Assembly (NCBI GenBank): GCA_040285855.1
Contig: JAUFOQ010000004.1
Coordinates: 620,001-684,000 of the forward strand
Direction of reading: 5' to 3'
DNA length: 64,000 nucleotides
Source: Eukaryota sp. GEM-RC1
Lineage: Eukaryota
Part shown: piece by piece, positions 8,813 to 60,865 of the stretch
Layout: each line of letters begins with the position of its first letter
How positions within the stretch are numbered: the first letter of the stretch is position 1
The notes under the pieces: generated by a model
Told to the model about the DNA's origin: nothing
Database searches by the model: none
The model's input: the letters and a program-made list of their open reading frames with translations, nothing else
Program-made: the position numbers and the translations under genes

Positions 8813-9310
8813 TAGGGTTGTTAATCAGTCCATCCCACTAGCTCTATGAACTGAACTGACACATGATGATTAATGTTAATCATATCAACAATTCGTATTT
8901 TTGAATAGACGTTGCTATTTCTTAGTTGACCAGATAGTCACATCAAAACAGATTGTCACCCACACTTTGACAATTACAGTAAATTTTCGCTAACATGATC
9001 AAAATGATTAGCAGAATTTCTTGTTTCTCTCTAAAAGTTTTCTAGATGAATTGATTTGTTTGTATGAAGTGACAAATCATGATGTGATGATTTGATTGAT
9101 GTCTCCGTTTTTGATGAAAATACTGTAAAGGTATTGTCAGATTTTCACAATTGTTAGTGTTTTACTGTGTATTAATGTCACATAAAACGGTCATGTCAAC
9201 GGATGATTATCTTTATTGATGGCTTTTTAACAGACAATATTGGTGAATCCACAAATCGTCAGTTCACTCAGTTCAGTGCATAAACTGGGCTGAACTGATT
9301 AACAACCCTA
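8813..9310. mobile_element. hAT-type MITE
   Basis: TIR tagggttgttaatcagt / actgattaacaacccta with a perfect 8-bp TSD gtgcaaaa. Confidence 0.9.
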
Positions 9311-16918: not shown

Positions 16919-19028
16919 CATACAATGGACAATAAGACAAGGCGACACCTTCAAAATACGTATAAAACGGTTGTTATAAATTGACTATCCCCGTAAATTG
17001 TGTTCTGAATGTTTTGTAATTGGGGATGGGACATAATGGTACAGATAATAGCTCACCAATAAATGAATTGATAATGCAATATACTGTACATGGATTTTAA
17101 AGGTAATAAACATAAATTTAAGAAACCACTAGTACGTAAGATATATCAAATGCAAAATGTATCTAGATTTTATAAGAACCCAATGCAACAAAAAGTCTCC
17201 GTCAACGATTTCATTTTCTTCATACCAGTAGGATTGGCAAGCATTTCTAATAGTTTTCACATTCCATCGAGTTCTATTGTAGTAGAGCCATAACTATCGC
17301 TGAAACTTGCTGATGATAGACAAAGATAGATATTGGTCCATATATAGAGGAAATAGTGATTCCAAGGCTGTCGACGATGGACTACAGTGTAAAAAAAGAG
17401 ACATGTAAGGAAAGATAGTGTAAATTTGTTGTTTTATTAGACGTAGTATCTAAAACACTGAAAGTCGACATTTAGACACTGGCTAATTTTTTGAAGAGAT
17501 CTGCAAACATAAATAACGCTCACACCGATCAACAGTGTCACAACAACTAACCTTCTTAATACCTGTTTTCTAAAAAAAAATTCAGTCGTAAATCAAGAAA
17601 TAGAAGTTATAAATGACATTGCTTACTATGGTTCGTTGTTAGCCAGACTGCTTGCTTTATCAATATCCTCATTTTTCGAAACAACAACAGTTTTGGTGTC
17701 AGTGTTTTGAATTTACTACTAATCCGAATCCAACAGCAAGTCGTAACTTCAAAAGAGGTGAACCTTCATTCTATATTTTCTCCCGTTAAATGACTGAAAC
17801 AAAAGAAACAAAGAACCTTTAATTCTCCATGTGATCAGTAACCTGTACAAAACTTGAGTTTATTGCTCTTATTCCAAAATTGGTCAGTTTTTCACAACTC
17901 ATTTCAATTGTTAATGTGTTTGCCACTTTCTACTATGGTTATAGATCTGAAATTCTAGAGGAGAAGAGGCTTTGGCTGTTGGTGTCCTTTGGTGGCACTT
18001 ATGGTATGTATCATGTTTAAATGCATACGTCAGCATTTACTAATTGATATGCCGAAGTCCGGTCATCATTTCTAGTAGTGTAGATTATCATAGCATGAGA
18101 ATCATAGTTAATAAATCACTTTAATTTCACATCTTGTATGTCCACACCTAACTTTAAGCATCAATACGTATTGGCTACCGAAGCCCGCGTAGACTCTCTA
18201 ACTTCAGATTCGAACACTCTCCCCAGCTAAAACATGCTGAAGACCTCCTGGGAAGGACATCTGTTCTAAGAAGGAAGGTCACTCAATGAGGACAAACAGG
18301 ATGAGAATCCCTTGTCACTCCTAACGACAACAGTGTTCCTCTTGCCTCGTGGTCAGAAGGATCCACTGTCAATGAAACTTTAAGTAACACTATTTTAGTA
18401 TTAAAAATGAATAAGTGTAATTAATCTATGTAGTATAAACTATTTGAATTGATACTAATTAGTATAACAAAACGTTTGACAAACGTGGGAGATAAGTTAG
18501 ATTGTTACAGTTAGTTTTCAATCTTACATTGTTTGAGTTGTTTGTTGTATCTGTTTTAGTGTAATTTCGTTAAAACAGTACTTTAAAAGACATCTATTAT
18601 CTACTACAATAACTTGAATATGATCATTATTGATAACCTAACACGAACAGTTACAGTAAGTTGTGGTTGCTTCGATCAATCAAAGTGGATTAAAAATTAA
18701 GAAATTATTAAAAAGAAATCCATCTTTAAAAAAAACAAAGAACAATCCCTTTTTATATATACAATTCTAGTCAATGTAAATCCGGTCAGACATTTTCTGA
18801 ATTAGTAGTTGTGGATCATTTGTTGCAAATAAACCAGTAAATTGAATCAATATTTGTTATAGCTGACAGCAAAAGCCACAGCAGAAGAATTCAGTGGTTT
18901 CCACCAAAGAAAGTATATATAACATATTGTTCGAGTACAATGTTTAAAGAGAAACAGAAATTTCAATTATTAGGTCTATTGTTCGCAATTCAAACCACCT
19001 CAGTACACAGAATTTATAAACCAAAACT

Positions 19029-26035: not shown

Positions 26036-27248
26036 AACAGAATTTGATCTCATAATACATGTACATGGTACTGCAAGTACAGACAACCCTCTGAATAGTG
26101 ATTGATGTAGGAATGTCACTATATTGAGGTTAGACTGTATTAGTATAACAATTTTTTATAGATGGGAGCCGGCTCAAAATTTGCTCACGGCTCAGCCACA
26201 GGCATTAGCCAACCGGCTGTGGCTTACAACACATTTTAGCCAGCTCTAGCCAGCTCATAATCATCGAGTTTTGTTTCGAGTATTTAGGCTAACTGCTTAA
26301 AAGTGTTATTGACTTGTTGGTTGATATATCAGTAAAATGATACAGAACCATTGTTAATGACAACTACACCGAGTATCAGAACGACACAACACTGATACTG
26401 TTGATCAGTACATTCCAGTTTTCACAGATTTTACATGTGACTCATTTTTGTGATTATCACATATAAACTTGACGGTTAGTTAATGCTTGAATCTGTGACA
26501 CAATCGTAACACCACTATGGAATTGGCTGTCTGCCTAGTATAAGAAAACAGTAGTACTATTGAGAAGGAACTTAATTAGTTCTAAAGAAACCAAGCCATT
26601 GGCAAAGACGTATTTTAAAAACAAGCACAGCATGTTTTTTATAATTTCTAATCCTTTTGGTATTCTGGATTGTCACCAAAAGCACGAATGCATACTCTAC
26701 TTTTGTCTTAATTTTACAGGTGTTATATCATGTAGGTGTTTTCTAACCAATTAAGACTGAAACAAGAGTAATTGTTGGTAACAAAAAGAAAATTTTATGT
26801 TATTTAGTGATGTATCTGAGGGAAATGTAATTCCCGTATATATCTAATCATTGTCTTTGTTATATACACTATTTTGTCTTCCCACCCTGTATCTGTGATT
26901 GCCGCTAGATGAGCAGTCTTTTTCATCTACATTTTGGTCTCCTTCCAATCTCGAGAGAAAATGGCTGTAATGATCGAACTTTGAAAGATCTGGTTGTTGA
27001 AAACGACTTGAGACTAAAGTTAAACGTTAAAAAAAGTCGAACTGATCTTAATGAATGTTGTTTATTTAATTCGATATAATCTTACAAAACGATAATGATC
27101 GACCTCGTCTATTGTTGGAAACGAATTATACAAGCCTACTAGTAGAAGAATGTGATATCCAACATGTGTTGAGCTTCAGAAAAACACCACCCAACACGTG
27201 TTGAGGTGACTTCAAAGACAGAAAAAGAAGATCAATCCATTTGCTTTA

Positions 27249-27600
27249 ATGTCTCTCCCTGAAAATCTGTTTGGTTGTTTCCAAAGATTTCAATATCGCT
27301 GTTACTGGATGTTTCTGTCCTTGCTATCTTGTTGCCAAGAACCAAGCTGAAAGTGATAATCGTATTTGTACTGTGTTCGATTGTCTCTGTGGTCTTCCAG
27401 CAGTTGAATATTCCTTACGTCAACGTCTCCGCTCTGAATTTGGTGCAGGCTATAGTCAATGTGGAGATTGCCTCTCTCTAGCTGTTTGTCCTACATGTTA
27501 TATCTGCCAAAACGCCCGTCTAATCAAGCATAAGAAGCTCCTCTATGGAAGAAACTATAGTTCTTATGTTCCGACCATGGATGTAAAAAAGAATATTTAA
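27249..27600 (+). CDS. PLAC8-family cysteine-rich protein, copy 1
   Basis: MSLPENLFGCF..DFN..VTGCFCPCYL...RQRLRSEFG...GDCL...CPTCYICQNAR. One extra base near 27282. Confidence 0.85.
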
Positions 27601-29160: not shown

Positions 29161-30504
29161 CATGGGTGAGAAAAAGTATATTGATATTGTATTTATTGCA
29201 ATAAATATCTATTTATTTATTTATTGTTCTGTGAGTTATCGACAATATTTTTGTTGTTGGTCGAAACAATAAACAATATTATTGCAATATCTTTAAATAT
29301 ATTTGGGTCCTATTTTGTCTGTTTTTACAGTAATACATTGTGCCATTTTTGAAGAAATATAATGTAAAGTGATCCATTGGAGGTTGCTGAGCACGATACA
29401 ATTCTATCTGAGTCTTCTTTATGTCTGAACATAAGGAAATTGTTTCCCACTACTTTTCAAATCTGTACTTGACACTATTTGTCCTGCTTAATACGACGGA
29501 AGCCCAAACTGTTCTGTTGTTGTGCGATTGAAGTTACTCCAAAACAGTATCTTCAATCAGAGTCTTATTCACTACACAATCTGCTGAGCTCTTTTAGGAC
29601 GATGAATAGTCTGAGGAACATCTGATATATCATAAAAAATGTTAGAGCTGTTCTTGTATAATTATTGACACATAGAAACTAAATACAATTAACCAATATT
29701 TATTGACAATAAATACATATATTTATTGTTTTCGACAACAAGAACAATATACACGAATATACGTGTATTTACTTCTGTACAAAACAAAAACAATATATTT
29801 ATTTCGTCATGTTGTTAGTTTCAAGAAATTTTTGCAATTTCCATCTGTTCTACATAACGCTGTTCGTGACGTTACTTATGAAATGTTCAAATCCTACAAT
29901 TATAGTTGTAAAATTGAACCTCTTCTGAAACATTATAGTGACAATAACGTGTTTGATTCTCGGCGTGGTGACTTAATTGCTCCTTTCCTGGATTCATCTC
30001 AAGTTGTGGTTGATTTTACTACAGTTGACCCGTTTGCAAAAGTCTACCAAGACTCCATATTGAATGATTCGAATGGTCATCTAAAAAAGGCTGAACAACG
30101 AAAGTGTTCAAATTATGCGGATGCTTTGCAGAAGCTTAATGAAAATCTATATTCTAAGTTTTCATTTGTTCCATTTGCCATTTCAATTTTTGGTAATATT
30201 GGTCCAGCCGGTTTAAAGTTTTTCAGTGATTTTAGTCTTTTATGTCGTTCTAATGGCAAGGTGTTTAATAGCGCTGTATGGACTAATCGAATTATGTTCG
30301 CTCTTTATAGAAGCATTCCCAAGTATTTATGTTCCATATATTCGAAGTTGTATAGGGACAATTCTCGTGTTGATGTGGAGAATTTAACTTCTTTCATTTT
30401 CTGAATTAGTATGTATTAATTAATTGTTGCAAATAAACTCTTATATATCTATTTTTATCGAAAACAATAAACAATATATTTAAATACATATTTTCACACT
30501 CCTA
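29161..30504. mobile_element. Degenerate hAT-type MITE carrying a nested retrotransposon fragment
   Basis: Ends catgggtgagaaaaagtat / atacatattttcacactccta; flanking 8-mers gtagagtg / gtagggtg match at 7 of 8. Confidence 0.5.
29815..30435 (+). mobile_element. 3' end of an RLE-type (CRE/R2-like) non-LTR retrotransposon
   Basis: HNAVRD...KIEP...RRGDL...VVVDFTTVDP...AEQRK...FVPFAISIFG matches the restriction-like endonuclease motif order. Confidence 0.75.
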
Positions 30505-30577
30505 GTAGGGTGCTTTAGTAGTTGAATCTACTCATGTTTTTAGTTCAAATTAAGCTGCACCTTTAACACGGAGTCTA

Positions 30578-30710
30578 TGATGTTTATTTAAGATCAACTG
30601 GGATAGCGACAAATACACAAAACTACCAATGTAGGTACACTATAAGAATTATGACAAGTGTATGTACAAGCTGGTGGTCGATCCAATGGGAATGACATTT
30701 TCCGAAGGAT
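30578..30710 (-). repeat. Diverged duplicate of the PP2A B55 3' end and 3' flank
   Basis: tgatgtttatttaagatcaactggg...aagaattatgacaagtg...tggtggtcg.tccaatgg.aatg aligns with 38012-38148. Confidence 0.75.
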
Positions 30711-31087: not shown

Positions 31088-31299
31088 TCCTGTGTGTGTT
31101 TCTTGGTGTTGTATAAATTCTCTTTGTGTTCGTCGATGTTCTGATCTCTGGATATGACGAATTGACAAGAAATTGTCACAATAGATCTATGCTTGATATG
31201 AATGAATACACAATAGTATCCAAACAGATCGTTTAACAGATCGTACTGGAAGAGTAAATTTGCTTTTTCGATTTTTAGGTCTATGTATAGATATGTTGA

Positions 31300-31560
31300 T
31301 TCTATTTTGTCTAAGTTGTTTGGAGGCAACTACTTTTCGGAATTAGGTAGTTCGTTTGATAATTTGTTTTAATAGTGTTTATTTATTTGTACTTATCTTA
31401 TTATGTGTTTTTCTCCGCACATAAATCCGTTTTTTTAATAGATACTTGTGTCACTTTCATTACTTGTTATGGACTTAACCAAATATGGCCGGGTTTCACC
31501 AGCCAGCTAACAAAAATAAAGCTAATTTCTACACAGATACTCCACTCTCTCATCATTACC
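31300..31560 (-). ncRNA. Candidate Fanzor omegaRNA and element right end
   Basis: Directly 3' of the Fanzor stop. Hairpins tggctgg-tgaaac-ccggcca (31486-31505) and ttatgtg-N10-cacataa (31401-31424). Boundaries not determinable from one copy. Confidence 0.4.
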
Positions 31561-34500
31561 ACTCATCCAGTGTTCGAACATGTTCATCATGTTCAAACAA
31601 GCCATCTTGTTTCGATTCCAATACACTTGACTGGGCACTGTGTGCCCTTTCTTTTCTCCCTTCAATCGTTTCGTGACTTCTCCCAGACAATGTTCACTCT
31701 TACACTCTAGTAAGCCATGAGGGTGGATCCATTCTCTTTTCTCTCTTGATTTGGGCTTTGGGTTGACAACCTCAATAGAAGTTTCAAAAACATCTTCATG
31801 ACATTCTGGACACTTGGACGAAGTGTATCTCTCATCATTCATAACTGTTAAAAAACCGTTTCTCTGAAAGAATGAAGTCCAAGTCTTAGTTCTGGATGGT
31901 GGACTGTGTTTTAAGTTGGTGATTGGCTTCTGACCTAAATCACCAATACTTAGTACAATTTTGTCACGACTACCGAAAGTTTTTACAATGCTGTTAACCA
32001 ATTTAGACTCTGTCTTTTGCTTATGGACATGATTTTGGATTTTGTGAATCCTCCATATATGCAAAGCATAGAAGTCTTTAGTTGCATTGTAGTGAATGCA
32101 TTTAGCCAGAATAAACTTTCTAAATTTATTGTAATTAACAGTTTTAGAATTCTGTTCTTCACTTAACCAAGTGTTCCATTTCTCAATTTTCATTGTCACA
32201 GTTATTGGAATATCATCACCTGCTCTCACGGTAGTAGTACCTGATCTCCTTCTAACAAGGTACTGGTGGATTCTTTTATGGATTCTTTTCTTCTTCAATC
32301 GTAAGAAGTTGTATTTCTTCAGAGGATTTTGAGTTTCCCTATTTGATTTAGATGCGAGTTGTAGCATATCTCTCTTTCCAATGTCCACATAAACCATTTG
32401 TTTAGAAATAAAATCAGTCCTATCACATTCATTGAAATATTGTACTTTTACTGAAGCTTTACTTGAATCAGGTTTACATTTCATTCCTTTCAAATCCTTT
32501 CTCACAAATTGAAAACAAATCGAAATTCCATCAGTTACAGCATAGTTGTTGAATTCAAAATTGGCTTTGTGAAAACTTCTGTCATCATAGTTAAACCATC
32601 TTTTCCAGTAATCCTGTTGTTGAGAATGGGTCAAGTTTTTAATCTGATCAGCAGACAAGTAATTAGTCACTTTTGAATGTAAAGGACCAATCTTCTTATC
32701 ATTATTCTTATATCCAAAACAGTGCTTAGCCAGTCCCCAAAGAGTTCTGGTATCTATTGGGAAAAAACAGGGAGTATTCTCTAAACTTAGAGGAATTACA
32801 TTAAACAACTTAGCACCCTTTGATTCCAAGTAATCTGAGATCTGAAGAGAATTTCTAAGAAAATGAAGTGGTTACTCCTGAACTGTGTAAAGTAAATTAT
32901 GGACGTCTACAGTTTCATTGTCGTTTGTAGTGATTGAAGTAGGAAATATGATGTTAAATCTTTGAAGTAATTCTGGAATTTTATCAGCCATGAGAGAATT
33001 GATCTGTTCAAATATTAACATACTGAAATCATCATTAAAAACTTTAGAAACTTCATCAATAAACTTAACATTTTCAGGGTGAGTGGCAGAGTTAAAAGAA
33101 TTAATATACTGTAAGGCTTCATCTCTAGGTCGATACAAAATCTGGTCTTTCAACATCTTTAATCGAAATCTGAAGTAACTAGTGAACTTTTGAGCTTCAC
33201 GACCTGTTAGTCCTGCAAGTTCTGGACCTAAAACCAAATTACGTTTCTGCTTCATTCCCTTTTCAAACTCTTTCTTACCCATTACCATTACTGTATTGAT
33301 AAATCTTTTAATGTACAACTCATAATTGCGGCGAATATTTAGTTCAAACGCAGGCCACATTTCATACTGAGTAGTGTATTCAAAAGCTCTACTGATGTGA
33401 TCAAAATCCAGTTCTGGTATATGACATTGGCCAAATGTATCAGTAACACAGTGCTTATATCCGAGGTAGTTTGAATTGACAGTATAGATTCCTTCACCAG
33501 CAACAAAATCACGAAGATCTGCATCAATTGTTGATATAGGATAATTGTTGTAAATTTTGAATCCATGAACTTCAGATGAAAGATTTCTAATTGAAAGCAC
33601 TGTATGATAAAACAACTTGTAATCAAACTTAGACAAATCTTGTCCAAGACGATAGCGAGCCAACAGATATTCTTTAACACACATTGTAGTCTGTTGTCTT
33701 AAAGCATTGTAGAACTGAGATCCTAAAAGCATGGCATCTTGAACTTCTTGATGTTTTACCACACTAAGAACTGAAGTTTTAATGGAAGCCAATGATTGAA
33801 AAACAATTTTGTCTTTTTGAAATAAAATAAACAATTTAAACGCCAGAATTGAATCATGAAGACAGTAGTTGATTAGAGTTTTCATTCTTTTATCATTTCT
33901 TAAACAATCAACTGGGAGGAAGTGGTCCAAGTCTTTATCCAATTTCAATTTGGGTTCAGAAAGTAAATTCCAAGATAAATTGGCTAGACTACAACCATAC
34001 TTGAGACCAATATGCTTTTTTGCAAACAAGAAGGTATCCAAAACTGTAAAACAATTGTGATCTTTTATGATATCCAGCCATCTACTTTGTAAAGGTAACT
34101 CAACTGGATTTGGATTTGTTAAAAGAGGTCAAGAGCCCACATTCTATTGTCAATAATGGGCAAATCAAAATTGAAAATATTATGGCCAATAAAAGCATTT
34201 GGTTTATATTGACTAACAATGTTAGCGTACGTAACCAATAATTCGTTTTCATTTGGGAAGTCCAAAAGATCTAATTGAAAAGCTGGTGTTTCTGATTCAC
34301 TGAATTTGATTTTATAATTGTAGTCAGTGTAAAGGACGATTGAGTTGTCAAATTGTAATTCACCATTGGATTGCAATTTTGCAATAATGACAGAGATCAT
34401 GATGATTTGTTGATCTGCGAGAAAATCAAGGTCGTGAGCTTCCTTCTCAAAATCATTCATTAACAATCTTCTCTGTTTCAAAGACTCTTTTTCCGTTCTA

Positions 34501-34598
34501 CGATGTTCATTCAATTCTTTGTTCACTCGTGTAGGAATTCTCTCATTGATATTTCTTGTTTCAATATCAATTATAAAAACTGTAGGAAGGGGAGTCAT
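31522..34598 (-). CDS. DEDDy 3'-5' exonuclease-Fanzor (TnpB-like) fusion, ~1025 aa after repairing one indel (~34120) and one in-frame TAA (32872-32874)
   Basis: ExoI IIDIET, ExoII GHNIFNFDLP, ExoIII YCLHD. Then, in the same ORF, a Fanzor-like N-terminus (SIKTSVLSVVK...KEYLL), KLFNVIPL, TDGISICF, RuvC-I VDIGKRD, IGDLG, DERYTSSKCPEC, HGLLECKSEHC and RuvC-III WNRNKMACLNM. Confidence 0.85.
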
Positions 34599-35912
34599 CG
34601 ACAACAGTATCAGTTGCAATGTCAATAAATGGAATTCTTGATTCTTTTTCCTTTTTTCCTTTAACAACTGGAATTTCCTCAAATTCATGCAAAGAGTCAG
34701 TTGAACCTTCAACTACATGCGAACTTTGACATTCTTCGTCAGTTTTTGGAAATTTTGTACAACCACTAGATTGATCATACAGTCTCTGTTGACGTTTAGA
34801 ACCTTGTTCTTGAGGACGATGAATTACTGACGAATGACACTTTTTTGGTTTCCGTTCTAGCCGTCGTGCTTTAGAGTTTTTGACGGATGTGTCAGATGAA
34901 GAAGAATAACTTGACGAAATTTTATTAGTTACTTCTAGAGTTTTACGACGAGATGACTTACGTGTAGTACTTTCAGAAGGGTCAGAAGATTTATTTCTTT
35001 TCCAGCAGGTTGATTAGTTTTGGGACATTGTGTCTTTCTTCTACCAGTGAGCAACAGATCGATGTTGACCAGTGTGAGTGTCAATGATGAGATTCAAAAT
35101 CCTTTTCCTCATTTCTAGAGCATCATATTCATTGAAAAGTCGAACTTGAAGTAGAATTACGTTGATATCTAGTGACGCTTGTTCAAATTCAACAAATTTA
35201 CTCATGTACTCTAAAATAAAAGGTCCACAGTCACCTTGTGTTTGGTGTTGAGTAACGAAAAGCCTTCCTAAATAATGATAATTGAAAGGAAAAAACACAC
35301 GCTCATGAAATTGTCTAATAACATCTTCGCAATGACCTAAAGTATCTAAAACTTTTGATGTTGATTTTGAGTAAACATTGGATCAAGGGAATAGTATCTT
35401 TTTCTCTTAATATCACAAATCAGCAGAGTCCAGTGAGTAGCTTCATTATTAAAGATACCATCGTTTATTGGAATAAACAAATATTGTTTGGTTGGTGGTC
35501 TGGAAGAATTCATCAAATCTAAGGTTTCTTGAAATAGTTTGTGAAGATGCCAACGATCTCTTTCTTCTTCAGCCAAATTGTCCTCTGTAATTGCAAGTGA
35601 CAATGCTTCACACGAGAGATATGGCCATTTAACACTATGTTCAGTAATGTACTGTCCATAAAAGTCTACAATAGTGGTCCATAACCAACTATGAGGTAGC
35701 AAAGAATCAATATTGGAATGATTTTCAATTAGATCGGGTCCAGGATTAGACTCAATGTCCCCGTCCATAGTCAAATCACGGAGAAATTGTGATGACTGGA
35801 GATTTATTTTGGATTTTGAAATAGCACAACAAGAACCACTACAGTATGGAGTACTATAACAAAAAAGAAATAGAAGAGATTTGAGGATCGAGGGACCCAT
35901 GAAAATCTTCAT
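34567..35912 (-). CDS. Leader ending in a 2A motif + Ulp1/SENP8-like (C48) cysteine protease + Ser/Lys/Arg-rich region; frame-disrupted
   Basis: LRDLTMDGDIESNPGP; protease motifs SWLWTTIVDFY, FIPIND...THWTLL (His), YSLDP (Asp), QHQTQGDCGPFI (Gln/Cys). Indels near 35350 and 35000-35070. Confidence 0.8.
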
Positions 35913-36078
35913 AAAGACCTGACGGTCTTGATTGAAAAGACAAAAACAAAAAAAGAAATAGAAGAGATTTGAGGATCGAGGGACCCATGAAAATCTTCAT
36001 AAAGACCTGACGGTCTTGAGTGAAAAGACAACAAACCCAGCAAAGGAGTGATCTGAGGATCAAAAGACCCATTGAAGG
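35858..36078. repeat. 88-bp tandem repeat: two near-identical units plus a diverged third
   Basis: gatttgaggatcgagggacccatgaaa at 35878 and 35966, variant at 36050. The two full units contain the inverted repeat aagacc-tgac-ggtctt. Confidence 0.85.
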
Positions 36079-36333
36079 CTCCCTGACAGTGGGGGAGACG
36101 AAGCACAGTGAGATATCTAACCAACACGAAGTCGATAGACATCTCACTAAGCGAATGATCTTAAATTTCTGTTTGAACTATTTGTGGTTAATGTCTACAT
36201 TGACATGTTGACATCTTGACAAGTTTGAGAATATGTCACTGATACAATAACAGTTGATGTCGTACTAATTGTAACTAACAGTATATGGTATATGATGTGA
36301 AATTGGAAAAAAGAAAACAATATTTATTCTATA

Positions 36334-36956
36334 TCGTAGGTGTCCCAATACAAGCAAGGTTCCAATACAAGCAAGGTTCCAATACAAGCAAGTAAAAGTG
36401 TTTGCTTGTATTATTCTGCTGCATTCAGGATGTTGAGCGAGTTATACTTCAATACAAAGTGTATTCAAATGAATTACAACGTATAGAGCTGTGAACGAAC
36501 TTCATAGTGTCCACTTGGATGCTTACGTGTTGTTGTTGCTAATTTTTACCCGAAGAACTCGATGGAGTTATTGTATTGTTTGACATTTGTAAAATCAGAA
36601 GCACAAAATGGCCTATCAAAAATCCAATTTATGAAACAATAGGCAATAGAATCCCTGTCAATAGTACTTTGCTCCTATGCAGACAAATATTGTATACTTG
36701 TAGAACAAATTAACATACTGTTGTTAAAGCATGTGTCATATTTATGTATTGTTATATATTTTTGTTCTACAGTATTTATAATACAGTGTACAAGTAGCAT
36801 TACGAAATAGAGTATGTGATCCAGTAATATATCGAAATCAAAGGTGTCGTCGCTTCACCGTATAATAGGGTCCCAATACAAGCAGGTCCCAATACAAGCA
36901 ACAAAATGTGTTTGCTTGTATAAGATATAAAGTTGCTTGTATTGGGACACCTACGA
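36334..36956. mobile_element. Tc1/mariner/pogo-type MITE
   Basis: 24-bp perfect TIR tcgtaggtgtcccaatacaagcaa flanked by TA on both sides; subterminal repeats of ccaatacaagca. Confidence 0.85.
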
Positions 36957-37560
36957 TAATTACAAAACTATGTGTATAAATGATTCCTCATCACTGTGGA
37001 AAACTTACCTAAATCCATGAAGCAATCTAAATGACATCATCCTTGGTGTCGTCGTCATGACAGCTCCAATTGGCGTTTTAAGAGCTCCTCGTCGTTAAAA
37101 GCACATAACCTTGCAGCTTGTGCTGTCAACATTGCAAGTTTTGATTTATTAAAATCAGTGTCGCAGTTGTCTGAAGTATTAGAGTAATACCCGACCAAGA
37201 CCTCCCACATTTCATTGGTTTTGCGAAGGTTTAGATCTCCATAAATAATATTTGCATACCTGGATCTTGTCAACATAACATTCAGTCGACGATAGTCTAC
37301 TAATCCCTCCGAAACACCACTCCCAACTTTGGTCCTTATATTTATCTGACCCTACTCTCCATGTTCTCACTTCACAGTCTTGTTATGCGGCGTTCATAAA
37401 AACACACCTTTATCTAAAAGGAATACTGCGTGATTGTTATGGGAAATGGACAGTACTAACTCAACGTGAACTAGTACTACACGTAACTGCATCACTATTT
37501 AATGAGTATATATCAATGATGATGTGTGAAATCACCAAATCGGTCTGTAACGGTAACATC

Positions 37561-37893: not shown

Positions 37894-38084
37894 ACGTCTA
37901 TCATTGCGTGTCCTATTTTTGGTCATTTGTAAACTTCAGTGTTAGTCAACCCAATCTACCCATCAACAAACTGATACGTAGTACTCACATGTACAGATTG
38001 TTTACATTACATGATGTTTATTTAAGATCAACTGGGGCAGCGATAAATACAGAAAACTAACTATTTAGGTACACACTAAAAGAA

Positions 38085-39451
38085 TTATGACAAGTGGTAT
38101 AGGTATAAGTTGGTGGTCGCTCCAATGGCAATGGTATTTTCAGTAGGATGCCAAGATGAAGTCAAAATCTTACGTGCAAAATCGTCATTTCCAAACTTAA
38201 CATCCTGCATAAGGTTCTTTGACTTGGAAGATCGAGATCCATACTTTGGACGTTTGTTGATAGATCTTGAGGCCTCCAATGTCGTAACATTTTTAGACTG
38301 AGAATCATAGACATTGAACAAATGTCCATAAGACCCTGTCAAAAACTTAGAGTCGTCACCTGACCATTGTACTTCAAACTTATCAAAGATACACTCATTC
38401 TTATAAACATCACAGAGATTAGATCGTAGTTGTTCGTGTACAGACACCGTTTTAACAGGGCGACTGTCCATGTTGACATCCCACAGTTTAACAGTAAGAT
38501 AATCACGTGACAAAATGTAACGTCCATTATTGGAAAACTTGACGTCACTTATACTGTTTAAGATCTCATTGAAATAAGAGTTATTAGGATTTGAAGGACG
38601 CGGAGGAAGCGCAAACCTTTTCCCATGTTGGTTACAGATAGCGGATTGCCGCATATCCGCAAGATTGATGATCCCCTTGGAAGTTCCGTAGATGAAGTGA
38701 TTACAATGAGCGGGAGAGAATGACGCGGTTGTAATGACTTCAGACAGTTCTTCCATGTTGTCGGGCTTGATGTCTACTATAGAGAAGGCTTCGCTGTTAT
38801 CCCCTAGATGCCACAAATGTATCCGTAGATCATCCGCGCTTAGAAAAGTTTCCCCGTCATTGTTGAGGGACATCGAGTTGACAGAGTACGCGTGTGCATT
38901 GGCGAAGACACGTTTACACGACGCGCTAGGCGCTGAGGATTCGGGTACAAGTTTAGGGACACGCACAGAAGATTTAGGCGTGATAAAACTATCACGCTGA
39001 TAGACTATACGTTTGGATGCTTTATCTTGAACTTTCCACAGTTTCATTGTTTTGTCATTGGTTGTTAAGAGCAGTGTTGAGTCGTTATGAGGCGGCAGCC
39101 AGCAGATCTTGTTGATACGTTCATCGATTTCTAGAGATCTAAGATAATCAAATTCAGCAAGGTGAGACTGGAACTCGGAGTAATAACGGTATTCCACACT
39201 GCGCAGAGCACGGCGAGCCTGAAATGAATGAAGAGATGTACCTCAAACCTTAGAGTCGTGGACTCGTTTAAAAAGAACAACTCTACCACCTCTATCTCCA
39301 ACAGCAAGCATGTTTCCGTCTTGATTGAACTGAACAGTAGAGATTATATCGGCTGGGGAAAGAGCCACAAGATGTAAAACAAACCCTCAACAATATCCTC
39401 AAGTTTGGCACGATCCCCGAAGACTTGACAGAATTTCCATTCTTCAGACAT
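38085..39451 (-). CDS. PPP2R2: PP2A regulatory subunit B55 (WD40)
   Basis: [59 protein letters not shown]. Introns at 39353-39384 (32 nt) and 39219-39248 (30 nt). Confidence 0.95.
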
Positions 39452-43520: not shown

Positions 43521-43799
43521 CAGCTAATAGCTTATAAATGTCAAATAATAGTGACCTGGTTAAGGAGAGAAAATTATGTTGAAGTTCTTTTCAAAACTTC
43601 AGCGGTTTACCATAATGGTAGACCACGAGAGAAATTTGACAACCACTGATACAGCTCATGGTTGTCTAGGGATTGCTTATACTGATTCACAGTAAACTTT
43701 TTGAGAAATTGTCAACCATGGTCATGTAACTTAATGACGAATAATTTCTGAAACTTCGCCAAAATGTAATAATTTACGTAAATTTAACTTCATTGTTTT

Positions 43800-44375
43800 T
43801 CAGAAAGGCAAAGAAGGATATGGCCTTTGAAAAACTGAAAAAAGTTTTAAGTTCATAAGTGCATCTTTTATACAGTAATTGGTCAATTCAGCTCTTTCTT
43901 CAGTTGTTTGCATTAGAATAGAATTGCATTTGCTGAGTTTAGATTTTCCTTCAGCTAAAATACTTGAGGAAACACTGTTGAGACTGTTGAAGTTAAATTC
44001 TTCTTGGCAAAAGAACAACAGTCATATCGTCATGAATGATGGTAGAATGGATTTTTAAAATTGTCTCTCTTTGAAGAATGTATGGTAGATCAAAGAAATC
44101 AGAATAAAAGCTTGAAAGAAAATCTGGTGAAAATGAATTAAACAAAAATAAGGAAACTCGAAATCAAAAGGGATTCAGATCTAAATAAAAACTATTACTT
44201 TCAGAATCTAATGTTGTAACCTTTCCAAAACTAAGCAAATGGTTTTCAACATTAAAATTCTTTTCATTTATAAAATAACAAAATGAATAACCAATCATGA
44301 CGATCGAAACCACAAAACTTCCTTCATCAAATTCATTGGGAGTTTCAATATCAACTACTGAAAGGGTGGACATTT
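43800..44375 (-). pseudogene. Relic of a PolB-type DEDDy exonuclease domain related to the one at 33840-34598
   Basis: MSTLSVVDIET (ExoI), DFFDLPYILQR (ExoII), SLNSVSSSIL, LTNYCIKDALMNLKLFSVFQ (ExoIII; compare LINYCLHDSILAFKLFILFQ). Confidence 0.7.
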
Positions 44376-45183
44376 TGGCAGTTGATTTGACTCTTATATA
44401 TGGATCCACTGAAGGTGAAGCTTTTAATTTTCGCGTATGTTGATACCACGAGAACGTAATTTGACAATAGTGTTTCCATTTCTATATTCATTTTGAAAAT
44501 AGACACAGACATGTTAGAGGGAACCTCAATTCTATAGCTTTAAACATATACGTAATTCTTTGTGATTCCTACCACTTCTAACTTGGAACAAGCATCATAT
44601 TGACGATTTGATACACCTCAGTATTGGAAATACATGTGGTATTAATATAATGGGTTTGGATTTTTGTGAATTTGTCGCTATACATACCATTTAATGACGT
44701 CCGTACTGATAACAAGAAACTATTTTTAAATAAAACGGTATATTATGTTACAAACATCTTGGTACAGTACTAGACATTGTTTAAATATTCATTTAACAAT
44801 TGCACATTGAGTATTTTCGTGGAGTATTTTGAAGGTCTGGTCCATGGTTCACAGATTTTTATTGGGTCTGGTCTGTAAGTATAAAGACTGTTTCCGACCT
44901 TTGCCCATCACCAAATTGTATCATGGTAGATCAAGAGTAGATGTAGAGCATTTAATATCATTTAACTACTAGTTGGTATTTCGTTAATTTTTGACATAAC
45001 AAAGTTAATTAAAAACAAAAATAAGTATGTTAATGACTCTTGAAAAGTGAAGTCTACAAGTGACTTGAGTTGGAGTTTCCCCATCCTACTTCTAACCAAA
45101 AATACCATGGTCCCTCTTTTTTAAAATCTTAATTTATCATGAATGAAACCTTTGCACCTGTCATCACTGCAGTATTCCGAGTA

Positions 45184-46308
45184 CAGTCAACTATGTCTAT
45201 AGCGTCACTAAATGGTAGAACGCTATAACCGTTTTACGCTATATAGGTAAACCTCAGTGTGCCCATCTGTACAATAACAAATATGTATCAATCAAACCTA
45301 AGCAGAACAAACTACATGTGGGTCATCCAAACAATCTAACAGTGGATGGGAATCGAGCCCTGAACTATGAGAACTGCAACATAAAAGTGGGGATGGTAAA
45401 TTCGACACAGTTGAATTCAAGAAGGAGCATAAACGTTGCAATTCTTGAGTTGTGGCCTCACCCTATCTATATCTAGTAGCAAAAGAGTGGAGAATGTCAA
45501 GAACTTCTCCTTCTCCCAACAAACGATTATCTTCCTTTACTACACTGGAACTCCCCATTTCTGTGTGAACTACACTTTCATTCATAACACTTTGTCCAAT
45601 AAGTGTGATCAATGACTCCTCCGTATTTTCTTCTCTCGCTATAGCGGCATCAACCCTGTCTTCCTCTGTTTCTTCTCAAAAAACCACGGAACGTTTTGTT
45701 CCCAAGTCAATATCGCCAATCAAACCTGTTTTCCTCCACACCTTCTAGATGACGCTAACTTCTGCTTCCTGCAAAGCATCGACAAGTGTGTGAATTACAT
45801 GATGAAGATCGAAGTTTTTTAGAACAACCTCGAGATCTCGTACTATTTTTCTTGCACACCACTTTCTCAATAAACGTCTGTATCCACATTTGCAACTTCT
45901 TATGATTCCCTAATATAATGGCTGTGACGATGTATTTGGTGGTAGATACAACAGTCTCACATGATTCAATGTTGAAACACAGTCGTCGTTGACAACAAAG
46001 TTATCAAGATGATACATTATCACTGTAGTGATGAAGTCGGAGGCTGAAAAGGAGAAGTTGGAGGTTATTCTGCGGAACTGCGTTCCAATTTGCATAAGGA
46101 AAGAAACACATCGAGTGCAACATCAAATTCTGCTTGAAAGAACGACAAAAGTGTGACCGGATACCATGATTTATTCAGAAACGGTCTATTGGGACAACAC
46201 TACGAGAAAACAGATTGTGGCACGGGAAAAAATGTCGGACAGTGAAAATTGTACGCTATAAACAGTTTTACGCTATAAAGATTGTGACGCTATAGACATA
46301 GTCGACTG
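45184..46308 (-). mobile_element. Internally deleted pogo/Tigger-like DNA transposon
   Basis: TIR cagtc(a/g)actatgtctatagcgtcac flanked by TA; DDE relic LDNF...HVRLLYLPPNTSSQPLY. Confidence 0.85.
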
Positions 46309-46759
46309 TATTTAGTCTGGATAAACAATTAGTCTGGACTTTAATTAGTCTGGTTCAGACTAATTCATACGTGTATGTATTGGATCTCTTTCAAAAGGTC
46401 ATTTTTTTACAACAATTAGTCTGGTTTTCACAATAAATTGTAAACACAATACACTACAAAGATACATATGGATTACAAAAGAAAGACATGATAGAGAGTG
46501 GACTGTGTACATCAAGTGGAAAGCTATAGAACACAGGACAATTGAACTTTTGCAATTGGCAGAAGACACTTTGAGAGAAGTAAACGATCAAAGAAACGAA
46601 AATGATTAACATAAGCTCGTAAAGCAATGATTCTTTGTGGGTTGTCGTTAAACACAAACAGACTGTGGAGACCGTTGAAACTAGAGCTACGGGCGTTCAT
46701 ATCCAAGTATTTAGAATAATTTGAAGTAATGATACCAGACACTGTTTCTGACAGTGATT

Positions 46760-52631: not shown

Positions 52632-55600
52632 ATGTATGAGGAACATAAAGCGGGTCTAGGATTCACGTGTTCCACTAAGGTTCAACATCATCTTGTTTCT
52701 TACTCCAGGATATTTCGTTACTTTGTGATGCTGAAGAAACACTTCCACATCCTCAACTGTCCGATCAAGTTTACGAGCTTCAGGAGATTGTAGGCAACAG
52801 GTTTGCGTCTATTATAGTTCCCTTGTTTCTAACAGTTAAACCTGTTTCCGATTCTACTCAAAATACAGGTAGGTGACAACCCAACAATTTTTCTGACTGC
52901 AGTTTTCAATATTGGCTTGTCTGATTCCGTTGTTCAAAAGCTGGTTGAAACAACTGGTAATTCAGATTTCATTTATGATTGCTACCGCTATTTTCTAGAG
53001 TCGTATGCTACGGTTGTGCTGGAAATCCCCAGGGAACAGCTTCTCCTAGTGTGCAACAACTGTAAGGCCGAATATGATCAATCACACGATGGTGATGAAC
53101 CTCCTCTGCTCTTTTCTATTACTCAAAACTATCTCTCTTTAATCCGCTCCTTAGGTCATGATATTCCCCAAGATCCTTGTGACCAGCTTAAAATGGTTGT
53201 TCAAAAGCTCTCTGAACAAAGTGCAGAATGTGCTTACTCTGATCTTTCTGTTTCTCTTCTTCTTACAAACCAAGATGGGCAGGCTGTTACTTTTGACCCT
53301 GTCACTCAGAACTACATTGCTGTAACAGTATCTGAGTTTGCGAGTCTCAAATCTACTCCTTTGGCTGAGTCCTCTGACTCTGACTTCCAAACACTACTTG
53401 ATCGCTTCAATTCTTCTCCAGACTCTTCCTTGGAGTGCGATTCCTCTTTACTCGATGGTATAACTCTTATTGAAATGTCCACAGACCCTAAGCCACTCTC
53501 TGCAAATCTCTTGTTAGACAGACCACCAAAGAAGAAAGAGATAAAGAAACAAGAGATTTTTAAATTACTTGCGATTGCTGCTGGTATTTGCTTACTTGTT
53601 CTGCTCCTTGTTCTGTCGTTTATGTTTGTCTTCAGAACAAAGGTTTTCAATGTTTCTGGTATCATAACACATAACTCAATTGCACTTACAAATGTTAATG
53701 TTTCCCTATCTTCCATTGATTTTGGGATGTTTCAAACCTTTACTGATGAAGAAGGAAGATTCGTACTTGAAAATTTGGCGTACGGTTCTTACGTTTTCCA
53801 CTTACAGCTCGATGGATATATTCCTAAATCATTTCCTTACAACGTGGTCAAAGATGATGATGCCCTTCAATTTTCTCTGGACTTGGTGGTCTTCTCTCTT
53901 GAATTCAATGTTCTAGATGCTGAGACCTTATTGGCAATCGATTATCCTCGAGTTAAGTTTGTTTTGGACCATGATGACGTTTTTATAATTGATGGTGACA
54001 TCAATGGAACCGTTTCTGTACCAGAGTTGATCCCTGGTGTCTATGAAGTAGTTGTTATGCATCCCAGTTACTTGGAAAAGACAATGGTAATTGACGTAGA
54101 TTCTTCCAACCTGATTACTGTGGTGTTGAATCCCCATGGATTCACTGTAGACTTTACCTTGGGAGATCTAACGGGATATGATAAAACCTTTGGAGTACAT
54201 GTTGAGATTCCGTCCAGTATTAACGGTGTTCAAATAGTCTCAATTCACAACAAGGCTTTTCAAAATTTTGAGTTGGTTTCTGTTGTTATTCCAGATTCAG
54301 TAATTGAACTTGGGCTTGAAGCCTTTGCTGATAACATCTTGGAGAACGTTACTATTGGAACCAGTGTTAATGTCATTGGCATTGAATGCTTTCGAAACAA
54401 CTCTTTGAAATCCATTGTGATCCCCGATAGTGTTGAATCTATTAATGCATCAGCATTTTCCAATAACAAACTGGAAACTGTTGTTCTTGGAAGTAGTTTG
54501 GAAATCATTCAGAGCAGTGTTTTTAAAGACAATCACATCACGTCATTGACTATTCCTGATGTTGTTTCACGAATCGAGCGGTCAGCGTTTGAGTCTAATA
54601 GCATAGTAAACCTTACTCTGGGAGGTGGATTGGAATTCATTGGTGAATCAGCTTTTGCTCTCAACTTTTTATCTTCCCTCTCGATCAATGCCTCAAGAGT
54701 AGGTGAGAACGCTTTTTATGGCAATATTATCACAGAGCTAGATTTTGGTTGTGGGGTTCGAGTTATTGGTGATAGTGCCTTTGCAAACAATCAAATAACG
54801 TCACTCACTTTTGATGATGGAGTTACTGTTATTGGAAAACATGCCTTTGAACAAAATTTCATAAGTCATGTTATTTTTCCAAACACCCTTTTGACTATTG
54901 ACGAGTCTGCTTTTGGAGTATAACGGCATGTCCACCGTTGAGTTTAACCCCACTTTAAATGAAATCAGATCAGCAGCTTTCCGAAACAACCAGCTTCTAG
55001 AAGTAATTATTCCCGACTCTGTCACCGTTCTTGGAACATCCGTCTTCGAATCCAACAATTTGACTTCTGTTACGCTGGGTGCTAATTTGACTGTCATCAG
55101 TCACTCTTTGTTCCGGTCTAATTATCTTGTTGATGTTTCAATTCCTGATAATGTTCAAGTAGTTCAATCCTTTGCATTCCAGAATAATCTTCTTGTGTCT
55201 GTTAATTTATCTATTAATCTAAAGGAAATTGGGAAATATGCCTTTGAGTCTAATAGCATAGTAAACCTTACTCTGGGAGGTGGATTGGAATTCATTGGTG
55301 AATCAGCTTTTGCTCTCAATTGTTTATCTTCCCTCTCGATCAATGCCTCAAGTGTAGGTGAGAACGCTTTTTATGGCAATATGATCACAGACCTGGATTT
55401 TGGTTGTGGGGTTCGAATTATTGGTGATAGTGCCTTTGCAAACAATCAAATAACGTCACTCACTTTTGATGATGGAGTTACTGTTATCGGAAAACATGCC
55501 TTTGAGCAAAATTTCATAAGTCATGTTATTTTTCCAAACACCCTTTTGACTATTGACGAGTCTGCTTTTGAGTATAACGGTATGTCCACCGTTGAGTTTA

Positions 55601-58600
55601 ACCCTACTTTAAATGAAATCAGATCAGCAGCTTTCCGAAACAACCAGCTTCTAGAAGTAATTATTCCCGACTCTGTCACCGTTCTTGGAACATCCGTCTT
55701 CGAATCCAACAATTTGACTTCTGTTACGCTAGGTGATAATTTGACTGTCATCAGTCACTCTTTGTTCCGGTCTAATTATCTTGTTGATGTTTCAATTCCT
55801 GATACTGTTCAAGTAGTTCAATCATTTGCATTCCAGGATAATCTTCTTGTGTCTGTTGATTTATCTGTTAATCTGAAGGAAATTGGGGAATATGCATTTG
55901 AGTCTAATAGCATAGTAAACCTTACTCTGGGAGATGGATTGGAATTCATTGGTGAATCAGCTTTTGCTCTCAATTGTTTATCTTCCCTCTTGATCAATGC
56001 CTCAAGTGTGGGTGAGAACGCTTTTTATGGCAATATGATCACAGACCTGGATTTTGGTTGTGGGGTTCGAGTTATTGGTGATGGTGCCTTTGCAAACAAT
56101 CAAATAACGTCACTCACTTTTGATGATGGAGTTACTGTTATCGGAAAACATGCCTTTGAGCAAAATTTCATAAGTCATGCTAATTTTCCAAACACCCTTT
56201 TGACTATCGACGAGTCTGCTTTTGAGTATAACGGTATGTCCACCGTTGAGTTTAACCCTACTTTAAATGAAATCAGATCAGCAGCTTTCCGAAACAACCA
56301 GCTTCTAGAAGTAATTATTCCCGACTCTGTCACCGTTCTTGGAACATCCGTCTTCGAATCCAACAATTTGACTTCTGTTACGTTAGGTGATAATTTGACT
56401 GTCATCAGTCACTCTTTGTTCCGGTCTAATTATCTTGTTGATGTTTCAATTCCTGATACTGTTCAAGTAGTTCAATCCTTTGCATTCCAGGATAATCTTC
56501 TTGTGTCTGTTGGTTTATCTGTTAATCTGAAGGAAATTGGGAAATATGCATTTGAGTCTAATAGCATAGTAAACCTTACTCTGGGAGGTGGATTGGAATT
56601 CATTGGTGAATCAGCTTTTGCTCTCAACTGTTTATCTTCCCTCTTGATCAATGCCTCAAGTGTAGGTGAGAACGCTTTTTATGGCAATATGCTAACAGAC
56701 CTGGATTTTGGTTGTGGGGTTCGAGTTATCGGTGATAGTGCCTTTGCAAACAATCAAATAACTTCACTCACTTTTGATGATGGAGTTACTGTTATTGGAA
56801 AACATGCCTTTGAGCAAAATTTCAATAAGTCATGTTATTTTTCCAAACACCCTTTTGACTATTGACGAGTCTGCTTTTGAGTATAACGGCATGTCCACCG
56901 TTGAGTTTAACCCCACTTTAAATGAAATCAGATCAGCAGCTTTCCGAAACAACCAGCTTCTAGAAGTAATTATTCCCGACTCTGTCACAGTACTTGGAAC
57001 ATCCGTCTTCGAATCCAACAATTTGACTTCTGTTACGCTAGGTGTTAATTTGACTGTCATCAGTCACTCTTTGTTCCGGTCTAATTATCTTGTTGATGTT
57101 TCAATTCCTGATACTGTTCAAGTAGTTCAATCCTTTGCATTCCAGGATAATCTTCTTTTGTCTGTTGATTTATCTATTAATCTGAAGGAAATTGGGAAAT
57201 ATGCGTTTGAGTCTAATAGCATAGTAAACCTTACTCTGGGAGGTGGATTGGAATTCATTGGTGAATCAGCTTTTGCTCTCAACTTTTTGTCTTCCCTCTT
57301 GATCAATGCCTCAAGTGTAGGTGAGAACGCTTTTTATGGCAATATGATCACAGACCTGGATTTTGGTTGTGGGGTTCGAGTTATTGGTGATAGTGCCTTT
57401 GCAAACAATCAAATAACGTCACTCACTTTTGATGATGGAGTTACTTTTATTGGAAAGCATGCCTTTGAGCAAAATTTCATAAGTCATGTCATATTTCCAA
57501 ACACCCTTTTGACTATTGACGAGTCTGCTTTTGAGTATAACGGCATGTCCACCGTTCAGTTTAACCCCACTTTAAATGAAATCAGATCAGCAGCTTTCCG
57601 AAACAACCAGCTTCTAGAAGTAATTATTCCCGACTCTGTCACAGTACTTGGAACATCCGTCTTCGAATCCAACAATTTGACTTCTGTTACGTTAGGTGAT
57701 AATTTGACTGTCATCAGTCACTCTTTGTTCCGGTCTAATTATCTTGTTGATGTTTCAATTCCTGATACTGTTCAAGTAGTTCAATCATTTGCATTCCAGG
57801 ATAATCTTCTTGTGTCTGTTAATTTATCTATTAATCTGAAGGAAATTGGGGAATATGCCTTTGAGTCTAATAGCATAGTAAACCTTACTCTGGGAGGTGG
57901 ATTGGAATTCATTGGTGAATCAGCTTTTGCTCTCAATTGTTTATCTTCCCTCTTAATCAATGCCTCAAGTGTGGGTGAGAACGCTTTTTATGGCAATATG
58001 ATCACAGACCTGGATTTTCGTTGTGGGGTTCGAGTTATTGGTGATAGTGCCTTTGCAAACAATCAAATAACGTCACTCACTTTTGATGATGGAGTTACTT
58101 TTATTGGAAAGCATGCCTTTGAGCAAAATTTCATAAGTCATGTCATATTTCCAAACACCCTTTTGACTATTGACGAGTCTGCTTTTGAGTATAACGGCAT
58201 GTCCACCGTTCAGTTTAACCCCACTTTAAATGAAATCAGATCAGCAGCTTTCCGAAACAACCAGCTTCTAGAAGTAATTATTCCCGACTCTGTCACAGTA
58301 CTTGGAACATCCGTCTTCGAATCCAACAATTTGACTTCTGTTACGTTAGGTGATAATTTGACTGTCATCAGTCACTCTTTGTTCCGGTCTAATTATCTTG
58401 TTGATGTTTCAATTCCTGATACTGTTCAAGTAGTTCAATCATTTGCATTCCAGGATAATCTTCTTGTGTCTGTTAATTTATCTATTAATCTGAAGGAAAT
58501 TGGGGAATATGCCTTTGAGTCTAATAGCATAGTAAACCTTACTCTGGGAGGTGGATTGGAATTCATTGGTGAATCAGCTTTTGCTCTCAATTGTTTATCT

Positions 58601-60329: not shown

Positions 60330-60865
60330 TACAGTACTTAAATAGTGTGGACCACACTAATTTTGATTACTTTTTTCAGTCGTAGATATTAGAATTAGTG
60401 TGGACCACACTAACTATATTCCACACTAATTTTCTGAAAAAGAATTAGTGTGGATTGAAATATTTTTTAAAGATGTTATGATATTTGTAGTTGGTGTTGT
60501 GTATATTCTTGGAACAATACAAAACTATAGAAGTTCTTTCAATAATGTTTTCAATTTACTACCAATGTGAAAATTTAATTTCACTATTACAACAAGTCCT
60601 TAACTGCTGATCAAAAGCAGCCAAGATTTCAGAGCCTAATATCATGTTAAGGAATGTTGAAAAGGAAAAGCATTTATTGGTTTACGACTAGTGCTTTCAT
60701 ATAGATTTGTTCTGGTATTCAGATATTATTGATGGATTATTAAAACCCACACTAATTAAGTCCAAAATTAACACTATAAAAAAGCAAGAAAATTAGAATT
60801 GGTGTAGACCACACTAATTCTTTATCCACACTAAATACACAAATTGTTGTACTTAAATAGTGTTA
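60330..60865. repeat. Probable non-autonomous element with repeated gtgtggaccacactaa motifs
   Basis: Motif clusters at 60345-60455 and 60745-60835; gtacttaaatagtgt occurs at both ends. Confidence 0.45.

Follow-up and report, generated by a model that had tools for sequence, protein, structure and literature searches.

A multi-copy Fanzor1 element with a fused DEDDy exonuclease, a Ulp1-type protease and a 2A motif in the metamonad isolate GEM-RC1

We have analysed a 64,000-nt stretch of the genome of Eukaryota sp. GEM-RC1 (contig JAUFOQ010000004.1, positions 620,001 to 684,000), referred to throughout as the window, and describe an element on its minus strand at 31522-36150. Read in its own direction, the element consists of a hairpin, three leader repeats, a 2A motif, a Ulp1 protease, a Ser/Lys-rich linker, an exonuclease of the PolB (family B DNA polymerase) type and a Fanzor1 nuclease, an architecture of which we are confident. 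Our preferred reading, held as a whole at about even confidence, is that the window contains a decayed member of a multi-copy family of Fanzor1 elements, likely non-autonomous, that would have been moved in trans as DNA. A first-pass annotation had placed the modules in this order and in a single orientation between a PLAC8 gene and a miniature inverted-repeat transposable element (MITE); the repeats, 2A, Ulp1, exonuclease and Fanzor1 were each detected on the minus strand, flanked by PLAC8 and, at the opposite end, by a MITE-like element. Its view of a repeated Fanzor element that carries cargo of its own, encodes a polyprotein and lacks a mobility gene is backed by copies in two species and by the unbroken open reading frame (ORF) of the P0013 type described below.

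With two long pieces of the element as queries, in searches limited by length and shared words, 6 proteins were matched: 5 from the metamonad isolates GEM-RC1, TZLM1-RC and TZLM3-RCL, and P0005, an ordinary Fanzor1. The 1233-aa protein P0013 as query brought in one more cluster. Gene models of the exonuclease/Fanzor kind number 23 in GEM-RC1, falling into 4 clusters, and the 20 models retrieved lie on 6 contigs; a second species, TZLM1-RC, has 11 models on 5 contigs at ~50% identity and a third, TZLM3-RCL, has 1 model. Pairwise identity among the GEM-RC1 models has a median of 91.4% (range 75.7-97.3, 138 pairs, P0007 included). P0007 shares the private lesions of the window copy and was treated as the window's own model and omitted from the motif counts. 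Because near-identical copies are dispersed, we regard the family as mobile. P0013, from TZLM1-RC, is one ORF that runs from the protease tail through a 2A, the linker and the exonuclease into Fanzor1, and P0016 extends an ORF of this type into the protease Cys motif. Since the order is common to two species at ~50% identity, it does not reflect a chance neighbourhood.

The Fanzor1 part occupies 31522-33789 on the minus strand and was recognised by matches to solved Fanzor1s (PpFz1 E 7e-16, SpuFz1 E 1.4e-15). The nuclease lobe gives E 3e-18 with SpuFz1 and 5e-17 with PpFz1, and hhalign gives 99% to P0005. Homology to Fanzors begins at ~33075 with P0005 and at ~33500 with P0004, and the domain probably starts at ~33789. 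The RuvC-I Asp is at 32385, the RuvC-II Glu at 31833, followed by a C4 zinc finger, the RuvC-III Asn at 31611 and the stop at 31524-31522. These follow the Fanzor1 pattern D-X(125-275)-[TS][TS]-XX-C4 zinc finger-X(5-50)-RD, with ~187 aa from D 32385 to the TS and with N as the last residue of the pattern, as in the active GtFz1. The rearranged RuvC-II Glu stands six residues ahead of CxxC, E 31833 fitting ExxxxxxCxxC. Among the relatives, the RuvC-I D is retained in 18/18 GEM and TZLM1 matches, and RuvC-III is N in 8 of 9 sequences and D in P0009. According to passages of PMC11423790, the D-E-N triad is active in GtFz1 and D606N raises the activity of SpuFz1; a RuvC domain killed by the D-to-N change is ruled out, Asn being the active state in GtFz1. 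In intact copies the nuclease is predicted to be active, and probably is.

Joined to Fanzor in frame in two species is a DEDDy 3'-5' exonuclease of the PolB type at 33790-34590 (minus strand; PF03104, E 2.4e-14), whose lower boundary is presumed. The ExoI D/E lie at 34568/34562, the ExoII D at 34166 and the Y and D of ExoIII at 33867/33855. ExoI DxE, ExoII NxxxFD and ExoIII YxxxD are present in the window and in every spanning sibling of the two species (4/4, 6/6 and 12/12, respectively). No polymerase domain lies downstream. The block might alternatively be what is left of an integrated DNA virus or of a Polinton-like element, with the exonuclease as a PolB remnant and Ulp1 and 2A also of viral origin. 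The PolB type of the domain, the presence of the closest 2A sequences in RNA-virus polyproteins and the Fanzor1s known from large DNA viruses, as reported in published passages, would suit such a source, which the first-pass annotation had entertained. We consider it very unlikely, given that polymerase, capsid, ATPase and integrase domains were not found in the element neighbourhood, that 4 scans of viral contigs gave no relative, that host genes flank the element on both sides, and that the in-frame exonuclease-Fanzor fusion occurs in two species. Metagenome scans gave no relatives either. Elsewhere in the window, at 43600-44375 (minus strand), is a DEDDy exonuclease that stands alone, is decayed and has a broken frame (DIET ... 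YCIKD); it is 35% like the ExoIII region of the element (E ~1e-3) and may be a relic of the element's domain or a related host protein.

Judged against the sibling gene models, the window copy is interrupted by six frame breaks or stops and also carries an in-frame indel. A protease frameshift at ~35352 is missing from 4/4 sibling proteases; at 35049 ~77 nt are deleted with a frameshift, a stretch that codes for 26 aa in 3 siblings and for about 20 aa in P0062; the frame changes within 35013-34938; and a frameshift at ~34590 is read straight through by P0025, P0011, P0013 and P0016. A further frameshift at ~34126, with ~4 nt missing, is continuous in 8/8 spanning GEM models, and the in-frame TAA at 32872-32874 is Tyr in 13/13 GEM and 3/3 TZLM1 spanning models. 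The in-frame indel near 32290 differs from 11/11 siblings and accompanies a local 12-nt duplication at 32267-32289. A 21-nt GT-AG intron across the TAA at 32872 was considered and ruled out, as 16/16 spanning siblings carry the in-frame Tyr. The element consequently splits into six ORF pieces instead of the two ORFs first proposed. The stop at 34567 terminates the linker ORF and not, as had been thought, that of the protease, and the ORF named for the exonuclease does contain this domain but also carries the N-terminal half of Fanzor. Repair of one base had been expected to restore a single polyprotein: the ~34590 junction is as predicted and is read through in the siblings, but one base mends only 1 of the 6 breaks, and the idea of an intact copy one base short is contradicted by the lesions seen against the siblings.

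If every break were a sequencing error, the window copy could be intact in the cell. Four of the breaks are in or close to simple runs, host genes within the window are likewise frameshifted, recurrent premature ends are common to the siblings, and Skoliomonas genomes with matching strain names are R9.4/R9.5 Nanopore assemblies with Illumina correction (passages of PMC11316075). We nevertheless regard this as highly improbable. The ~77-nt deletion, the Tyr-to-TAA change and the indel with its 12-nt duplication are private to the window copy and are not homopolymer errors, and on this comparison of sequences the copy is therefore most likely dead.

The Ulp1/C48 protease lies at 35050-35735 on the minus strand (Pfam E 1.2e-5) and has the His-Asp-Cys triad (His ~35435, Asp ~35417, Cys ~35229) with Gln before the Cys; the frameshift at ~35352 splits it in the window, and its ORF is unbroken in P0034 and P0061-P0063. 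ORF and sibling comparison places the protease tail and the Ser/Lys-rich linker at 34591-35049 (minus strand). The protease frame terminates at an identical stop in the window and 4/4 siblings, the linker frame has no Met, and the frame change within 35013-34938 is also found in 4/4 siblings. Since the protease stop is shared and the linker frame lacks Met, the linker frame must be reached via a programmed frameshift, or else the change within 35013-34938 is a systematic error. P0025 has a 2A of its own right before the last part of the linker, a site at which the window has none. A decayed second 2A at ~35045 was ruled out, the siblings showing a simple deletion there. Two AlphaFold models were of low confidence (mean pLDDT 35 and 38).

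At its 5' end the element begins with a long hairpin at 36108-36149 (minus strand, as are the repeats that follow), a candidate terminal structure of ~19 bp including G-U pairs, with an RNA z of -5.9 (0/200 shuffles) and a DNA z of -3.3. Two 88-nt tandem leader repeats at 35861-36036, 97% alike, have two stems and an AUG each (z -2.9 and -2.8). They are preceded at 36036-36100 by a degenerate third repeat (z -1.4 alone) with an AUG at 36072 and the same nested stem; in this stem, by our reading, two pairs differ at both of their bases when the first and third units are compared, too few for a covariation test. The leader segment 36072-35968 is matched at 86% by the sibling P0037, in which the leader period is 29 aa (87 nt). 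Next in order, at 35736-35795 (minus strand), is the 2A/StopGo-type motif, located at 35759, which ends in DIESNPGP, agrees with the consensus D[V/I]ExNPGP and is the sole 2A motif in six frames of the window. A 2A motif by itself is described as insufficient for peptide-bond skipping in passages of PMC3708506.

The 2A is also the junction at which leaders and proteases are exchanged among sister families. With the 2A-protease piece as query, a full HMMER search yielded 27 matches; of 10 looked up, 9 were GEM-RC1 proteins, whose clusters total 38 models, and 1 was from a picornavirus. Several families have tandem repeats, a 2A, one or two Ulp1 domains and a linker, and two of them continue into an exonuclease without some of the acidic residues. 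The leader repeats have periods of 29-38 aa and unrelated sequences. A usable leader and protease were present in 17/24 proteins, with the window as the 18th; P0034 and P0063 (no leader), P0025, P0013 and P0016 (internal 2A) and P0048 were left out. Clustering each side of the 2A gave 3 leader types that each stand ahead of two proteases, and 4 protease types that each stand behind 2-3 leaders. The window leader precedes a different protease in P0037; one leader is shared by P0035 and P0038, which have two proteases, and another by P0077 and P0083. At the level of protein sequence, leaders and proteases have thus been reassorted exactly at the 2A, and the swaps are unlikely to be chimeras from false introns because such chimeras would not all join at the 2A. 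Modules occurring apart had been held by the first-pass annotation to speak against an element; the leader/2A and protease modules are indeed found in different combinations elsewhere, which indicates a modular superfamily and not the absence of an element. The segment after the sister-family exonuclease aligns to a four-sequence N-terminal Fanzor profile at the expected place, with 17/1000 shuffles equal and the region preselected by eye; a profile-profile comparison of this segment with Fanzor gave no match. P0048, a 391-aa protein with 23-aa leader repeats, a 2A and Ulp1, is unlike the GEM-RC1 types and may represent the same plan in another organism.

As the first-pass annotation had stated, the element has no recognisable mobility gene: transposase, reverse transcriptase (RT) and helicase domains were unmatched in every ORF piece and sibling scanned. 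For DDE transposases, Pfam gave only a below-cutoff IS1 match (E 0.02-0.03) in the RuvC region of P0002 and P0008. Comparison of 31088-31525 with 35900-36335 gave no terminal inverted repeat (TIR), target-site duplication (TSD) or asymmetrical terminal inverted repeat (ATIR) above chance. Among Helitron2 traits, the 5' hairpin is present and a small 3' hairpin lies near 31424-31401, while the ATIRs of 8-15 bp that Helitron2 has are not seen above chance. A DNA route in trans, to which we give roughly equal weight for and against, is suggested by the existence of transposase-less Fanzor1 elements and by the end-processing role proposed for the DEDDy domain of Dada transposons. Fanzor1 elements without a transposase include Spu-1, SfAV and CMe-1A (the last without TIRs), and the Fanzor1 carriers named in the published passages are mostly DNA transposons.

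Several observations weigh against this interpretation. The sibling evidence all comes from gene predictions on long-read assemblies, which are prone to error. Neither element ends nor a TSD, a TIR or an autonomous partner could be identified; the longest end-to-end match is 8 nt, a length reached by 193/200 shuffles. All 5 GEM-type protease ORFs share one stop, and a single ORF is for this reason demonstrated in TZLM1-RC only. In sister families that share the 5' plan, acidic residues of the exonuclease have been lost, so that exonuclease activity is dispensable there, and the third-species homologue P0004 (TZLM3-RCL) has no detectable exonuclease. RuvC-I reads DIG in the GEM type and DLG in the TZLM1 type, not the usual DPG, which occurs in P0004 only; SpuFz1 itself reads DPN, and the DPG motif is therefore typical but not strict. 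Finally, non-LTR (long terminal repeat) retrotransposons offer precedents for each of the 5' traits, namely repeats in tandem, a 2A near the N-terminus, Ulp1 and the swapping of 5' parts, according to passages of PMC3708506, PMC4640811 and PMC3600994.

Because each 5' trait has such a precedent, movement through RNA is a real rival to the DNA route. The element would then be a HAL1-like, RNA-mobilised parasite of a non-LTR retrotransposon, with RT supplied in trans and template switching at the 2A swapping the leaders; the 5' repeats would be an internal promoter or structured leader, and Fanzor might supply the target cut. In the parts of these papers drawn on, 2A motifs are N-terminal in non-LTR ORFs, as in L1Tc/Ingi (PMC3708506), an N-terminal Ulp1 is present in NeSL and Utopia-1_TSP (PMC4640811), the tandem monomer promoters of mouse L1 have been replaced 11 times (PMC3600994), and Fanzor1c is found near long interspersed nuclear elements (PMC10530073). 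Leader periods of 29-38 aa in unrelated sequences would also fit, as would the missing TIRs. We further take the ORF at 29676-30404, from its motif, to look like a retroelement C-terminus. On the other side, neither a poly(A) tail nor a TSD was seen in the window copy, RT was absent from Pfam scans of 89 proteins (RNA-virus polymerases aside), and the match between the 3' region of the element and the tail of the 29676 ORF is marginal, A/T-rich and equalled by 12/300 shuffles. The element, unlike non-LTR retrotransposons, is without RT, apurinic endonuclease or restriction-like endonuclease (RLE), and the passages seen describe no element that combines all these traits with Fanzor. We judge this route unlikely, though deserving of attention.

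Less probable still is pure homing, in which the RNA-guided endonuclease would spread by break-induced gene conversion among existing repeats, the shared 2A/leader DNA providing the homology. Swaps at a single motif common to all families and the retained catalytic residues are compatible with this, and a cut-and-copy role has been proposed for Fanzor (passages of PMC10432273). However, the window copy stands between unique-looking host genes and its 3' flank has no repeat in a self-comparison of the window; homing alone would not easily give access to new, unrelated sites, and the 3' ends required for recombination would be shortened by a 3'-5' exonuclease.

Under the preferred DNA route, intact members are predicted to make a polyprotein processed at the 2A into a Ulp1 protease and the exonuclease-Fanzor fusion, and copying to new sites would likely be carried out by a DNA transposase supplied in trans. 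What the comparisons contribute directly to this scheme is the set of dispersed copies with the same order and with catalytic residues kept in two species, together with the reassortment of leader and protease at the 2A in the predicted proteins, for which recombination at the shared motif may be responsible. Translation would be initiated at one of the AUGs of the leader repeats, with the variable repeat peptide then shed at the 2A, so that any leader could drive any downstream module. By analogy with what is known of Fanzor1, an RNA made at the 3' end would direct cleavage of sites that are empty or competing, and the element would be kept through repair templated by an occupied copy. The fused exonuclease would probably trim 3' ends at the cut; trimming of the 3' end of the guide RNA is the less likely role. 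In the weakest step, Ulp1 might strip SUMO from host silencing or repair proteins, or cut the polyprotein.

Passages of the published accounts offer partial parallels. The Fanzor1s of Spizellomyces punctatus Spu-1 (8gkh) and Parasitella parasitica (9cf0) also have a RuvC with a rearranged Glu, a C4 zinc finger, many copies and no internal transposase; Spu-1 differs in its ~2.1-kb single-domain ORF and 30-nt inverted repeats, whereas the present element is ~4.7 kb, with no TIR found, an exonuclease fusion, a protease and a 2A. Guillardia theta GtFz1 (9cer) shares the D-E-N triad, is active in vitro and comes from loci apparently without inverted repeats or transposase, but its sequence match is weak (E 0.009) and no such cargo is described in the parts seen. 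Among the unclassified or non-autonomous Fanzor1 elements of Bao and Jurka 2013, CMe-1A, MCi-5 and CRe-1/2/3 (Helitron2) are in their published passages Fanzor elements that lack TIRs; the 5' part of CMe-1A recurs in another element, and Helitron2 has a 5' hairpin. Unlike in these, no ATIR was found here, and the words 'protease' and 'exonuclease' are absent from that main text. The Dada transposons of Laccaria and Ectocarpus have a DEDDy exonuclease in the transposon protein, proposed for processing of cleaved 3' ends (passages of PMC3706591), but in Dada the domain is part of a DDE transposase, whereas the present element has no transposase and carries the domain fused to Fanzor.

The literature listings and abstract openings searched showed no Fanzor combined with a DEDDy exonuclease, Ulp1 or 2A, subscription journals and Repbase lying outside the search and figures such as S1B of PMC10530073 possibly listing such fusions. 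In the available texts, 'exonuclease' is absent from the main texts of PMC3627910, PMC10711439, PMC10530073 and PMC10432273 and from the text supplements of the last three, one supplement file aside. The sequence table of PMC10432273 gives 8 GHNI and 4 NPGP matches, none of them ExoII- or 2A-like in its visible parts, and the 2A survey PMC12338488 does not mention transposon, Ulp1 or Fanzor. The solid new points, which rest on comparison of predicted proteins, are the exonuclease-Fanzor fusion and the swaps at the 2A. A different N-terminal stretch, which we take from its motif to be XPG/PIN-like, is carried by an 855-aa chytrid Fanzor1 (row 1397 of supplement file 3 of PMC10432273).

Past the Fanzor stop, a candidate omegaRNA scaffold is placed by its position at 31440-31521 (minus strand), with a GC-rich hairpin at 31505-31486. 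The 85 nt there fold into three stems (z -1.66), a form described for Fanzor1 RNAs in passages of PMC10711439; 9/200 shuffles fold equally well and Rfam gives nothing at this site, so that the omegaRNA of the first-pass annotation is not demonstrated. Rfam returned miRNA-like matches on the MITE only. This MITE-like element (36332-36958) has 16-17-nt subterminal repeats and is one of several with 25-28-nt terminal inverted repeats, the others lying at 45182-46310, 7467-8696, 8813-9310 and 60391-60821. Directly past it and in the same orientation as the Fanzor1 element is a ~100-aa remnant of an Upf1-like superfamily 1 helicase C-terminus (37055-37351, minus strand; AAA_12 E 0.0014, Upf1 E 0.001). 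A direct repeat of ~135 nt (84%) at 30577-30710 and 38011-38149 brackets PLAC8, the element and the MITE and contains the 3' end of a WD40 gene, presumably PP2A-B-like. PLAC8 has a paralogue (89%) at 27240-27538. The ORF at 29676-30404 (plus strand), within the segment 29676-30471, is 242 aa long, has an Atlas score of 0.96 to eukaryotic clusters and sits between 30-nt inverted arms; its tail (30395-30438) is repeated at 18791-18834, and its motif presumably resembles the C-terminal nuclease region of RLE-type non-LTR retroelements. At 52833-59380 is a frameshifted gene of about seven 654-nt leucine-rich repeat units, which we assume to be BspA-like; its 5' part is copied inverted (93%) at 1-2204.

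In the exonuclease-Fanzor fusion, an end-trimming exonuclease is paired naturally with a nuclease guided by RNA. An engineered fusion of the T5 (5') exonuclease to SpuFz1 reduced editing, according to passages of PMC13434818, and a fusion kept across two species can for that reason inform the design of editors. For study, the family has numerous dispersed copies in protists that are in culture, an unbroken ORF in P0013 and, as comparators, sister families with decayed exonucleases. The use of the 2A as a swap point between leader and protease is a way of building mobile elements that we did not find described, and it stands even if the mobility route proves ordinary. More doubtfully, the whole may be a plug-and-play superfamily in which repeat leaders, SUMO proteases and exonuclease-Fanzor units are exchanged at a 2A socket and which spreads without a transposase of its own, Fanzor opening the target and the element being copied in from RNA by a borrowed RT, or by homing. 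The function of Fanzor in its hosts is given as unknown in passages of PMC10432273; if this last proposal were true, Fanzor would be the targeting enzyme of a eukaryotic mobile element and not its passenger.

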